Assembly (NCBI GenBank): GCA_964016885.1 | Contig: OZ024740.1 | Location: 346,208,001 to 346,272,000, forward strand | Length of the DNA stretch: 64,000 bases | Direction: 5' to 3' | From: Eledone cirrhosa | Lineage: Eukaryota | Shown here: positions 507 to 62,810 of the stretch, one piece after another | Layout of the letters: each line of letters starts with the position of its first letter | How positions within the stretch are numbered: the first letter of the stretch is position 1 | Program-made: the position numbers and the translations under genes | The notes under the pieces: generated by a model | Database searches by the model: none | Told to the model about the DNA's origin: nothing | Seen by the model: the letters and a program-made list of their open reading frames with translations, nothing else

Positions 507-688
507 AATGTATAAAAATCAATACAATATAATTACCTCATTACCAGAGGTTTCCCGAATGAGGCGAATACGAAATAAAGGTAATTATATTGTATTGATT
601 TTTATACATTAAATTTTGCTCTGATACTTACATAGAGCACTCTTCATTTCTATGACCTTTTCTGTTTCCAACGGAAATTTCAATACTT
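507..688 (+). repeat. Short hairpin element (32 bp arms) with tail, embedded in (TA)n
   Basis: aatgtataaaaatcaatacaatataattacct / aggtaattatattgtattgatttttatacatt inverted arms; tail contains gagcactc (635-642). Confidence 0.75.
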
Positions 689-1885
689 ATATATATATAT
701 ATATATATATATATATATATATATATATATATATATATATATATATATATATATATATAGATATATTGAATGTAACATGACATTCTTATTTTCATATTAC
801 CAAAACTTTATATATATATTACCAAATATCATTCCTCCAGGTTCAAAACACGTGCCCTAAAAGTTATCGTCACAATCATTCTGCAAACTATTTTAACACT
901 CTAATCCCCATACTACATTCAAGTCAATTTTCATTGGAAAAAATCAGTAACACAACATACATAATGAACGAAACCTTTAATATTAAATACTCACAGTTCC
1001 CTTACATTAGAAAATAAAAAGGCAACCAAAAAGATACGCTTAACCGCACCCCCACTCCTTCAATAAAGAAACAGCTGGAATACCACAAAAGACAATTTAA
1101 ATTTATTAAACACTATGTAATTACACCTAACTTTCATATTTATCAAGTAATGCAGTTGTGCATTACTTTGTAATGGTGTCGATTTGTGGGTATATTTGTA
1201 TATATATATATATATATATATATATATATATATATATATATGTGTGTGTGTGTGTGTGTGTGTGTGTGTAGATATAGAATTATACATGCGCATGTTGAAT
1301 TGTGTATGTGTGTATGTCTGATTGTGTGTGTTTGTGTACATGTACTTGTATCTTGATTAGGTTTAAGCGGTCATTGTACCATATACTGCTGAAACTCTGA
1401 GTAAATTGATTGATTCCTAATTAGAAATCGCCCAAGGTTTGCATTAAGAATTCAGAAGAAATTTCGATATAGAATTCTGTAATTTAATAATGACCACAGA
1501 TTATTGCAATAAATATTTATGATCTCACTATCTATTTATGAAGTTTAAACCTATTTTAGATAGAGGCATTGCTTTGTTTCTTGTGTTGTGTTAATGGTGT
1601 TAGACCACAGATTTGCTACTGGCTTTACTTAGAAAGAGAAATCTTATATCAGATAGAATGAAAGTTCTCCGGAAAAGAGCAAATGAAACTATCAAAACCC
1701 TCTGGTGGGATTTAAATGAAAATATGTCATGTTGCTTAGATACACCCTTCTGGCAATCATTCAAATTATCTTGCTAGTTAAATCTTTATATACGTGTTTT
1801 AGATATTTTATCACGCACGGACACAGATACACGTACACACACACTCTCGCTCTCTCTCACACACACTCATATATATATATATATA

Positions 1886-4100
1886 TTATAATAATGATTT
1901 CTTTATTGGCCACAAGGGCTGGCATCAAGAAAAACATTACAGACGGCACAGGACGGTACAGGACAGTACGATCTGGGTTTTGTGCGTTTAAATATTTTTA
2001 TTATTTATAGAAAAGACAAAAAAAGGACATAGAAACATATATATATATATATAAACGATAAAAATGAAAATTGAAACAATGAAAAATTCCCCAATAGGGG
2101 GGAAACCTCCGAGGGTTACTCGTGGCGAAAATCACACAAAAGACGATGGCCACCCTGACCACCAGGGCAAACGGCCTCTCTAAATTTTTCCATTTCTCAA
2201 TCTACAGACGTATATTCACTCGGACCATTCTCGCTACATACACCCACCTTTCAACAAGCTTGTTAGAAGGCAGCACTTGCCTCTCCACCCTGATTTTCCT
2301 CTTCAAGTGAAACTTGAAAAAGTTAATTAGGGATTCGCCGAAGAGGAAAGTGTCTGTCTTTAACCCTTTCAACCTTGTCCACCACACAATCTCTTTCGCC
2401 ATGGCCACCAGGCAGATGAAAACCGCCTGCCCTTCCTCCTCGAAGGAAGACGGCGAGACCATCTGCACAATGAACTCAGTCGACAACCGGATCAGTCCTA
2501 CACGCTACAGCAACTGTTCAACATAGATCCACAAGTCCGCAATGCTCGGGCACTGAACAAGTGCATGTACGACGGTTTCGTCGCTCTGCGCGCATCCCGG
2601 ACAGGCTCGACTGACGGCACTTCCGTGCCTTTAGAGCTTATCTTGAACCGGCAGCGCTCCCCGGTAGCACTGCAAGGCCAGGGATTTTTGGAGGTTATCC
2701 ATAGGCCCTGGACTGAAAGTTCTCCGGAAAAGAGCAAACAGCTGATCTTTTTGACGCCCAGGATCTCTCCGAGAATGTCGCTCTTCCCCTCCACTAGTCC
2801 TCTATAGAACGCCGAGCTGGATGTTCCACCGATACTGGTGCCCAGCTGGCAGTGGGCAGTGAGCACCTGGAGACATTCCAGTTTCCAAGCGCTATCCCTC
2901 GGTCTTTTTCTGACCCAGGACTGCAGCTCCATCAAGGAGACGAGCTGTGGGAAAACGTGCCTGGCGAACGGCGACCACACATGTTCACCACCAATGAAGC
3001 ACCAGAGATGTCGCAGCCTCAGCGCATGTTTGCGCATCATCAGCTATGGCATGCCCAGTCCTCCACGCAACGGGTATTGACAGCAGATGGATCGTCTGAC
3101 CAGGGGAGCGCTTCCCTTCCACAAAAAGCGGAAGAGGAGGCGCTCCATTTTGGTGAGAGTTGGGCTGGAGCAAGGGACGACGGTGAGGCGGTAGCAGATG
3201 ACAGATGCGATGAACGCATTCGCCACCTCCGGCCGGCCTTTCAGGGACAGTTTCCTCTCGGCCCATTTCTGGGTGAGGGAGGCCAACCTGCTCGTCACCT
3301 CGTTCCAGTTTTTCTCCTTCTGAAGGTCCGGTCCGAACAGACCCCGAGCAATTTAACGGGTCCATCCGTCCAACGTCCCACGACGCTGTCGGACGGCATG
3401 GACTTGCCTCTCCATGTCCCGAGCTGCAAGCACACCAATTCTTCCTGGTTTATCTTTGTTACTGTCACCACTTCGTATTCCTTGAGAGCGGTGCCGAGCA
3501 TCTGGACGTGTCTGGTGCTCGACACCGCCACGGTGACGTCGTCAGCGTAAGCAGACTCGGATTTCCCGCATGCTAGTTCACGTGGGACGCCCCTCATCTC
3601 CCCCAGTTTGTGCAGTAACGGCTCGAGAGCCAATACGTACAAGAGGGACGAGAGGAGACAACCCTGGTGGACTGAGCGCATGATGCTGAACGGCTGCGAC
3701 ATGTGACCGTTCACCCTCACAACTGAGCAGATGTCGCTGTACATTGCTACGATCCAACCCCTGAAAACGGGCCCGAAACCAGCTGCCTCGAGGACCGCCG
3801 CCGGGTACCGATGGTCGACCCTATCGAATGCTTTGGATTGATCCAAGTTGATCAGGGCACCACCCGTGCCAGGTTCCTTAACCACCCTCTCTATGATGTA
3901 TCGCATGAGGTGGAGGTTGTCCTGTATGGATCTGCCCGGAATGGCGCATGTCTGCGCCTCTCCCAACCTTGTTGCTAACAACTTGGCCAAAATCTTGTGA
4001 CTGCGTTTAGCAGTGTTATGGGCCTGAAATTATCGATAACATCCCCCTTGTTCGGGTCTTTTCTCAGCAGCGCCACTGCTCTGCGGCTCACAATAGGGAA
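1886..4100 (-). mobile_element. 5'-truncated, frameshifted L1/Tx1-clade LINE (ORF2 reverse transcriptase and C-terminal region)
   Basis: ORFs 3295-3990, 3044-3298, 2498-3040 and 2202-2486 give QTCAIPGRSIQDNLHL, LDQSKAFDRVDH, QGCLLSSLLY, AYADDVT and GGLGMP; minus-strand AATAAA at 1902-1907 followed by a (TAT)-rich tail. Confidence 0.9.
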
Positions 4101-4129
4101 ATGTTCCTAAAATTCCCTCATTGCGTTTG

Positions 4130-60694: not shown

Positions 60695-60770
60695 GGGGTT
60701 AGTAGCACCATGGAGAATCGAACTCCGTATATCTCGGTTAATCTGCAAGCTCGTTAAATATTACACTAAT
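60695..60770 (-). other. tRNA-like degenerate sequence (pseudogene or SINE head)
   Basis: Minus strand tagtgtaat...ggagttcgattctcc...gtgcta with a T-arm-like hairpin. Confidence 0.35.
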
Positions 60771-61029
60771 ATCAGGTTCTATACTAAACAGTTTGCGGCT
60801 AGAGGCGTAATGTAACTTAGCTGGCTTACAAATCAAACTCATTTTAGAATTTTTAACGACTGATATAACTATTGTACACATAAACCTTCATTGAGCCCTG
60901 CCCTTGACTGTCATCATCCTTCTTCTTACCACAAACTCGTTGAAGAAAAAGACGAAGAAGAAGAATAAGAAGAAGAAGAAGAAGAAGAAGAAGAAGAAGA
61001 AGAAGAAGAAGAAGAAGAAGAAGAATTAT

Positions 61030-62340
61030 ATCACTCTCTATATCCGTAAACATTAATCTCTTTCAATCTCTATTTCCGAAACCATTAAACTCTCCCCTTC
61101 TCTATATCTAACGTACAATACACTATCCCAACATTCCTCTCTCTGTATATCTACTACCACTAAACTCTCCCCCTCTCTATACCTATCACACGGTTCTTTC
61201 TCACTCTCTATATTATAATCACTAAACTTTCCCCCTCTCTATATCAATCACATTGTAATCTCTTCTAATACGCCTCAATCTATTCATTACAACAAAACTC
61301 TCCTACTCTCTGTATCAACTATATGGCACTCTCTCATTCTCCCCCTCTCTACATCTAACACCAATAGTCTCTCACCCTCTCTATATCTGTTCGACATTAT
61401 CTCTCCCAGAACCCCTCTTCATATCCATTATCATTAAACTCTCAAAGGGCGGTGGATTGGCAGTATCGCTAGAGAGTCGGACACCATGCTTTGTAGCATA
61501 GAGTTACGGCTCTTTATGATCTGAGTTCAAATCCCGCCGAGATTAACTTTGCCTTTCATCCTTACGGGGTCGATAAAATAAAGTACCAGTCACGCACTGG
61601 TGTCGATTTAATTGACTTTCCCCTCCTCCCAAATTACTGGCCTTGTGCCTATATAAGAAACCATTATCATTAAACACTCAGCCTCAGTATATCTGTCCTA
61701 CACCTATCTCTCTCAACACCCTACTCTATAACTACTACTAGCATGATTTCCCCCTCTCTCTATCTATCAATAACTATCTCTTCAACACTCCTCATTATAT
61801 CCACTACCAGTACACTGCCGCCCTCTCTATATATACCACACGGCACTCTCATTAACCCCCTTTCTAAACCTAACACCAATAATCCCCCCTCTCTATATCA
61901 ATTACGACACTATCCCCCCAGAAACATTCTCTATACACCCTTATCACTAAATTCTCTCCCTCTCTCTCTATATATTACTCCTATCCCTGCCTTCACTACT
62001 CTCTATAGCTACTACCTGCAATCTCTCCCCTCTCTCTATCTACCACCCGGCACTCTCTCATGTTCTTCATTTCTATAACCGTAACCCCTAACCTCTGCCA
62101 ATCACAATAGCTATCATACACCTACCTCTCCCAACACCACTCTCTCTATCTATTTGTATCTCACGAGAAACCCCACTATATCTGTAACCATTAATCTCCC
62201 ACCTTCTTTTTATCTACCGTACAACACTCTCTTCCAATACACTTTTCTATATCTACTACCATCAAACTTCCTCCCTCTCTACATCTACTACACGCCAGTC
62301 TCTTCTAATCCACCTCACTCTATTAATTACCAACATTCAG
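61030..62340. repeat. Degenerate pyrimidine-rich minisatellite
   Basis: Recurring cactaaactctccc(c)tctctatatct units. Confidence 0.7.
61448..61665 (+). mobile_element. Full-length tRNA-derived SINE with ~20 bp target-site duplication
   Basis: A box tggcagtatcgct, B box gagttcaaatcc, core cctttcatccttacggggtcgataaaataaagtacc; ccattatcattaaac(t/a)ctca at 61425-61444 and 61661-61680. Confidence 0.9.
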
Positions 62341-62810
62341 TAGTTCGAATCAAACACTTTCTTGAAATCAGGCATACATAGATATATTCTTGCACAAAGC
62401 TTAGAAACGGCATATATCTGAAAGAGTTTCTACATCAAAGACTAAAACAGAAACCGTGCACTTGGAGACACCCAGTTGGGCATCTTTCTCAAATTGATGT
62501 TATCATTCAAAGAAAATACATATCAATATGTGCATGCAAATAAAAACACACATTTAATGACGAAAACAAAATTTTTTTTATTCCAGAGTTGGGCCCGATT
62601 GACACAGGTCGAACCTTAAGCTGATCAATCGCGTCACTCCACAATAAATGTAATCAAAATTGACACCTCGTCCTTTTTTTATTATTATATTCTGCTTAGT
62701 ACAACCCCAAAATAAATACTGGAGACTACGCATAGAGTGCTCAGGTTGATGAATCTACAGTAACTTGACTTTAAAATCCATAAACTATATATATATATAT
62801 ATATATATAT

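Follow-up and report, generated by a model that had tools for sequence, protein, structure and literature searches.

Penelope-like elements (PLEs) are the closest retrotransposon relatives of telomerase, and how they choose internal start sites for copying and come to carry a one-sided tail is an open question. Two other reverse-transcribing systems offer points of comparison: the 5' inversions of LINE-1 arise by twin priming, in which primers from both target strands yield an inverted junction, and hepadnavirus epsilon is a bulged stem-loop that loads the reverse transcriptase (RT) and sets its start. Here we describe a 64,000-nucleotide stretch of Eledone cirrhosa DNA (GenBank assembly GCA_964016885.1, contig OZ024740.1, positions 346,208,001 to 346,272,000, forward strand; hereafter the window) from a 3.0 Gb animal genome rich in microsatellites, in which short elements share the palindrome GAGYRCTC. 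Comparison of the copies suggests that these are mostly 5'-truncated, often mirror-image 3' ends of Hydra-clade PLEs, and that GAGYRCTC supplies the 3' arm, with the adjoining flank, of a predicted bulged RNA stem.

As described in the parts of the papers available to us, to which all statements about cited sources refer, Hydra-clade elements carry an RWK motif, DKT, a CxCX5C linker, a GIY-YIG endonuclease (EN) at the C terminus and a pseudo-long terminal repeat (pseudo-LTR) hammerhead, and insert into (TA)n (Craig et al. 2021, PMC8557442). Their copies, like the present ones, combine an inverted 5'-truncated copy with a one-sided tail, although the tails measure 30–40 nt there and ~65–155 nt here (PMC8557442). 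Similarly, the green anole Poseidon element PAc (Frangieh et al. 2024) has an AT-rich target; in vitro, both target strands are cut and extended, reverse transcription begins internally at two positions that mark the boundaries of the tail, RNA lying 3' of these positions is required, and the protein is predicted to form a dimer (PMC11167929). PAc, however, belongs to another clade and starts inside the open reading frame (ORF), in an AC-rich stem-loop; the signal for its two RT starts was mapped only to a 172-nt region, and the available parts of the paper report no repeated motif positioning each start (PMC11167929). Metazoan non-LTR retrozymes and minimal PLE hammerheads resemble the elements of the window in being short, non-coding and related to pseudo-LTRs, with type I hammerheads (bioRxiv 10.64898/2026.07.22.740005; PMC4209133), but retrozymes form tandem arrays whereas the elements described here are single or mirror insertions (bioRxiv 10.64898/2026.07.22.740005). 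The element class, tail, inversions and (TA)n targeting are already known. By contrast, the parts of Craig et al. available do not mention the paired bulged stems, how these line up with the copy ends, or the rule that an insertion has one short and one long end, even though the unit is present in their consensuses (PMC8557442). A literature search with subscription papers and Repbase outside its scope turned up no account of the motif, of twin stems or of a one-of-each rule.

Origin of the short elements

GAGYRCTC has eight exact occurrences in the window, six of them in the short elements singled out by the original prediction. These six motifs lie where they had been placed, and a microsatellite begins 34–54 nt after each; the two others (33074 and 51131) do not adjoin one. 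Genome-wide, 28,448 copies of the motif were located 30–60 nt 5' of (TA)8 on the forward strand. An equivalent count gave 501 for the reversed pattern, and GAGRYCTC, a palindrome with identical composition, gave 844, so that the proposed positional enrichment near (TA)n is present. Doubling the forward count gives an estimate of about 57,000 sites on both strands together. Positional conservation applied to this enrichment but not to the palindrome itself, which varies between families and leaders, variants including GAGCCCTC, GAGCACCC, GAGTGCTT, GAGCACTG and GAGAACTC; when these are counted, at least four further such ends lie within the window. Matches to the motif plus (TA)n split into many unrelated families. 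Over 200 kb sampled at even steps, a microsatellite adjoined 4 of 11 motifs, and five of the other seven lay in one satellite array. The satellite array at L075 (G000:C2:260,000,001-260,010,000) has short units, and the motif occurs there by coincidence.

Five of the six elements match Hydra-clade PLE families that have ORF-bearing copies. A mirror insertion of family F1 (503..691, plus strand) comprises an inverted short-ended arm (503–579) and a direct arm with tail (579–691), with the stem of hairpin 1 from 618 and the motif at 635–642; it matches at 97–99% a full-length leader copy (L337), which runs on to hairpin 2 and a Hydra-type ORF. Three elements belong to family F0: a tail alone between two (TA)n tracts (5627..5713, plus; hairpin 1 stem 5632, motif 5652–5659), a mirror insertion with a short left end, a long right end and the 3' half of a hammerhead (38733..38899, plus; stem 38837, motif 38857–38864), and a further mirror insertion (48446..48650, minus; stem 48523, motif 48503–48496). 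The elements had been called mostly dissimilar; they are indeed not all alike, but these three form one family, with 1,930 first-look candidates in the genome, ORF-linked copies (L261, L262) and leaders (L324, L325, L329). A decayed direct end (62575..62786, plus) has no mirror arm, a deleted hammerhead core, a decayed stem arm at 62689 and the motif at 62735–62742. Its match to family F6, whose leader and ORF are present in L327, is weak (65% over 213 columns to L178, E 6e-6).

The remaining element is a small mirror insertion (5750..5903, plus) with an intact minimal hammerhead core (5767–5806), a stem at 5842 and the motif at 5858–5865. Two hairpins were seen in its family, the second carried by L312 past the long end, and no PLE ORF was found in the 2 of 20 loci that were read past a possible third end. 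This apparent third preferred end (L312, L233, L442, L445) lies ~85–90 nt past the second hairpin and is followed by weaker stem-like sequence, with no Hydra ORF in the two loci read; the family is possibly a non-coding or three-site derivative. A link to full-length PLEs was therefore obtained for the families of 507 and of 5628/38733/48451, for which ORF-linked leaders exist, and weakly for 62575, but not for that of 5750.

Copies of the 38733 type consist of an inverted piece, a direct piece and a one-sided tail, with (TA)n on both sides and variable junctions, and longer copies of this family extend into a same-strand GIY-YIG ORF. In the full-length copy L276, an inverted arm, pseudo-LTR, tail, leader, ORF, 3' untranslated region (UTR) and pseudo-LTR follow in that order. 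Copy lengths vary continuously, with variable 5' truncation points, and ORF-linked copies with variable 5' ends were found for F0, F1, F3 and F6. The long hairpin noted originally thus consists of a direct copy fused to an inverted, 5'-truncated one, and is absent from 62575. The CGAAA remnant that it was said to enclose is a real hammerhead 3' core in 5750, 38733 and 48451, but antisense of stem II in 507, while in 62575 the core has been removed by deletion; three of the six elements have only half a hammerhead ribozyme or none.

The ORF-bearing parents were assigned to the Hydra clade by diagnostic protein motifs. L276, L261, L327 and the window (33719–35852) have a single ORF that encodes an RT plus, at its C terminus, a GIY-YIG EN. 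R-x-R-W-K/R, which lies on a predicted N-terminal helix, is present in the L327 ORF, in homologues and where the ORFs of motif families begin. DKT (in place of DKG) was found in the window frame at 33828, DKT or DKS in homologues and GKT in the L327 copy. The CxCX5C linker, with CxxC and CxH around the EN core, was seen in the second frame of L327 and in window frames, and by regular-expression check in metagenomic ORFs; CCHH is absent, as judged by eye. In a fold search, the model of the L327 ORF was closest to telomerase RT structures (E 1e-8), which supports a telomerase-like RT; the search did not place the R-x-R-W helix on RNA. Insertion into (TA)n was confirmed for these families, and a predicted hammerhead core and stems were read by eye in the pseudo-LTRs of the F1, F5, F7, 5750 and 33584 families. 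F0 has a U3-A8-type hammerhead core, read by eye; a pattern search for its 5' core gave no match. An Rfam scan of two short stretches recognised neither hammerheads nor stems, and for the whole window gave only sub-threshold microsatellite-driven miRNA matches among the 150 of 183 matches listed; Pfam recognised 1 of 11 PLE fragments, as a weak RT. One family here is ~4.9 kb long (4.9 kb between pseudo-LTRs in L276) because of a 3' UTR of 2 kb, compared with the <3 kb that is typical, not defining, of the Hydra clade (PMC8557442).

Twin stems and the two copy ends

The conserved unit is a predicted bulged stem that reads NCTC-Y, loop, R, a 2-nt bulge starting with U, GAGN and then RCT. GAGY pairs with an upstream RCTC, one further pair forms across the bulge, and loops range from 3 to ~80 nt. 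In all units the RCT 3' flank (often RCTC) is a repeat of the stem's 5' arm, hence the apparent palindrome, which is incidental, since the octamer varies in its middle and at its last base.

The unit occurs twice between the pseudo-LTR and the start codon, the second time ~10–60 nt 5' of the ATG. In L276, unit 1 begins 8 nt after the short end, and unit 2 begins 8 nt after the long end, near the ATG; the second stem past the long end was predicted from this copy and then seen in ten more families (11 in total). Among 421 copy ends from 12 families, part of them from loci selected with tail-bearing queries, 367 fell at one of two positions (223 long, 144 short, 54 other), and a single register was shared by 91 of 100 F1 matches. 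Across 19 units, the end lay 5–10 nt from the stem base regardless of loop length, while its distance to the motif ranged from 18 to 97 nt; the pairs at position 1 were G-C in ten, A-T in seven, and T-A and G-T in one each. Nearly all classifiable mirror insertions used one end of each kind: of 102, 78 could be classified, as 76 long+short, two long+long and no short+short, and outside the tail-selected loci the counts were 30, zero and zero. One of the two ends of a short copy tracks the second hairpin, yet that hairpin is missing from the short copy itself. As a ruler for the short end, the spacing to the hammerhead cleavage site was considered and rejected, as it was ~20 to 60 nt depending on the family.

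The presence of a stem just past each of the two copy ends likely tells the telomerase-related enzyme where copying starts. We therefore consider it probable that the stems are RT docking sites in the leader, with copying starting 5–10 nt upstream of each in Hydra-clade PLEs. As each stem lies outside the arm whose end it marks, it would act on the template or an intermediate rather than on the finished copy. ORF-bearing copies and the fixed motif-to-end relation support the earlier suggestion of a cis signal for the PLE protein. The accompanying ideas of a DNA palindrome or a promoter element are disfavoured, since the palindrome varies, the upstream pairing covaries and the fixed distance belongs to the stem base.

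It is quite unlikely that the hairpins are chiefly expression signals of the leader (for a promoter, for RNA processing or for autoregulation of translation close to the AUG), with the ends following indirectly, for example from processed RNA 3' ends. Both units do lie between the pseudo-LTR and the start codon, the second close to the ATG, and Penelope has an internal promoter and an intron there (PMC8557442); a promoter box, however, would need no covarying pairs over loops of such different lengths and leaves unexplained why an insertion has one short end and one long end. The same binding site could additionally serve in translational autoregulation.

The PLE link of the short elements held, but their proposed status as PLE-dependent mini-elements or solo pseudo-LTRs did not extend to self-propagation in the ORF-linked families, given the continuous lengths and the short copies without a second hairpin. 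Independent propagation as non-autonomous mini-elements or retrozymes, with the palindrome dimerising the RNA or binding a protein dimer on double-stranded DNA, would account for the 150–200 nt forms at very high copy number and for the family of 5750, which is not tied to an ORF, and retrozymes do derive from PLE pseudo-LTRs (bioRxiv 10.64898/2026.07.22.740005). We regard it as very improbable nonetheless: truncation points are variable, ORF-linked copies exist, the six elements show no tandem units, the palindrome varies and stem 2 is missing from the short copies.

Hydra elements of other hosts and a possible mechanism

A metagenome scan with one protein as query returned no match, but an alignment as query gave 78 Hydra-like loci; 65 with a matched N-terminus were used, 52 of these had a leader of at least 140 nt, and they formed 36 clusters. 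Many open frames of 700–740 aa occur among L351-L428. At least one closed unit was present in 32 of the 36 dereplicated leaders and two units in 16; as controls, ORF windows gave 2 of 108 and shuffles 15 of 720. In 58 units the pair crossing the bulge was C-G (33), T-A (16), T-G (5) or other (4), and none of 10,000 permutations reached the 49 Watson-Crick pairs. A 2-nt bulge fitted 49 units, compared with three, one and nine for bulges of 0, 1 and 3 nt, and the first bulge base was U in 57 of the 58. The 3' copies behaved similarly: among 24 contigs with a 3' pseudo-LTR copy, 12 copies stop 0–5 nt before the stem, seven reach the contig end earlier, four read through and one ends elsewhere, and all eight copies with a clear microsatellite junction stop 0–4 nt before the stem. 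In one subgroup (L362, L376, L398), both leader stems have jointly become TCTC/GAGA in one event and the zinc-finger linker is longer; these appear to be a natural specificity variant.

By eye, five of the six published Hydra consensus sequences carry the unit (consensus file of PMC8557442), in sea cucumber, coral, sea louse (as GCCC/GGGC) and octopus. The sea cucumber consensuses have it twice before the ATG and, in a second family, in the tail; the sixth sequence is without leader and tail. The four exact octamers in the supplement of Craig et al. are not at Naiad or Chlamys ends among the 8 of 15 places listed.

These data also bear on the possibility that the stems act as DNA, with the GIY-YIG EN trimming a longer cDNA or donor-DNA intermediate at a set distance from each stem and so producing the two ends. 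Folding of both strands is seen for many stems, Craig et al. attribute the tail to EN-mediated resolution (PMC8557442), and the Drosophila virilis Penelope EN needed the tail to recognise and cleave plasmids, according to Frangieh et al. (PMC11167929). However, the sole PLE reconstituted in vitro makes its two ends through RT initiation (PMC11167929), the bulge-closing pair on the sense strand includes five T-G wobbles versus one C-A, and the invariant bulged U fits RNA. We judge trimming of DNA to be unlikely.

Several observations weigh against docking of the RT on RNA stems. The end positions and the 19 units were chosen by the analyst from modal ends, with the first NCTC after the end taken as the 5' arm, and three further listed units were left out of scoring. 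Pairing probability was ≤0.1 in 4 of the 19, and the preference for the sense strand was modest (five units favour sense by >0.2, one favours antisense). The bulk count of double motifs (772/748) was about equal to its control (733/575), so the case rests on per-family register. Among the metagenomic sequences, reverse-complement leaders still gave 12 of 36 closed units, three A-C pairs occur at position 1 that would be wobbles on the other strand, and one 3' copy (L363) stops 83 nt before the stem. The anole element belongs to another clade, and a Neptune-like family in the window itself has two ends and a tail without GAGYRCTC, indicating that PLEs in general do not need the motif.

If docking on RNA is nevertheless correct, the following sequence of events may be envisaged. 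The EN would nick both strands of a (TA)n target. Two RT molecules, docked on the two stems of a single unspliced RNA, would then each use one of the nicks for priming, giving one start on either target strand; at most start sites the template opens with TA, which may help by annealing to the nicked target. Starting at stem 1 would give the short end and starting at stem 2 the long end, with a tail containing stem 1, and the two truncated cDNAs would then join head to head. The presence of stem 1 in the tail would place the motif 35–55 nt before the microsatellite, and under this scheme short mirror copies could not regenerate themselves. Compared with LINE-1 twin priming and epsilon, a repeated signal located 3' of the copied sequence apparently programs both starts here, and both arms copy overlapping sequence.

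The unit resembles the arginine sandwich of HIV TAR and 7SK, in which a Watson-Crick pair and a pyrimidine bulge beginning with U precede G-C and A-U pairs, a geometry that suits a U.A-U triple (PMC6189040). The two differ in which side of the stem is closed by the loop, and the likeness is one of secondary structure only, with no homology implied. The unit fits that secondary structure, with U first in 57 of 58 bulges and a closing pair in 54 of 58, and the conserved arginine-rich helix of the element's protein is a further parallel. More speculatively, the U bulge before G-A may create a pocket resembling the arginine sandwich, which the R-x-R-W helix specific to Hydra elements would recognise. 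The fullest version of the proposal, which we put forward tentatively, is programmed twin priming: a dimeric telomerase-related RT-endonuclease would bind two TAR-like stems on one RNA through this helix, each subunit starting cDNA 5–10 nt before its stem on opposite target strands.

Other insertions in the window and wider meaning

The window also holds a near-full Hydra PLE (33584..37814, plus) related to L276. Its inverted tail carries a motif variant (33584–33656, minus) and is followed by hairpin 2 (33665–33686), an ATG at 33719, a broken ORF to 35852, a 3' UTR, a hammerhead and a short end at 37814. A mirror insertion with an ORF fragment (43719..45545, plus) has a long-ended inverted arm (43719–44003) with the GAGCACCC variant and a short-ended direct arm ending at 45545. 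Two more mirror insertions have no overall strand assigned. That of family F3 (56146..58249) has a short-ended minus arm with ORF fragments (57041–58076) and a long-ended plus arm (58143–58249) with GAGCCCTC at 58205; that of F5 (16993..17607) has a long-ended minus arm (16993–17223; motif variant 17070–17063) and a short-ended plus arm (17471–17607). A short-ended arm of F2 (58257..58387, minus) is without tail and motif. The decayed end of a further family (~38,640-38,720; matches L235) carries a degenerate motif, which is followed at once by the (TA)n tract preceding 38733.

The Neptune-like family (DKSG, CX4CxxC; L279, L280) is young and present here as a mirror insertion at ~19,590-25,380. 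It has many copies at 98–99% protein identity, open frames that reach 1,218 aa and include an insert rich in asparagine, two 3' ends, a 45–60 nt tail and a long end just before the ATG, and no GAGYRCT unit; to judge from these sequences it is likely an active element, as well as a control for the motif. Another PLE type in inverted arrangement lies at 53,950-56,050 (GIY-YIG ~55,240-55,550), again without the motif. Non-PLE features comprise a broken Helitron with Pif1 helicase and Rep domains (40,361-43,267) and fragments of two LINE-type RT elements (2,200-4,030 and 59,500-60,500).

The origin of the PLE tail is disputed, one paper invoking EN resolution (PMC8557442) and another two RT starts (PMC11167929). 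Start choice becomes testable with a motif that is short, covaries across the clade and keeps a constant distance to both ends, and the stem register gives an annotation rule for Hydra PLE boundaries, at tens of thousands of sites in this genome. Programmed twin priming, if true, would explain both the tail and the inverted ends of PLEs. It would also mean that a portable two-hairpin tag suffices to insert any upstream RNA at (TA)n, which could matter for RNA-templated gene insertion tools.

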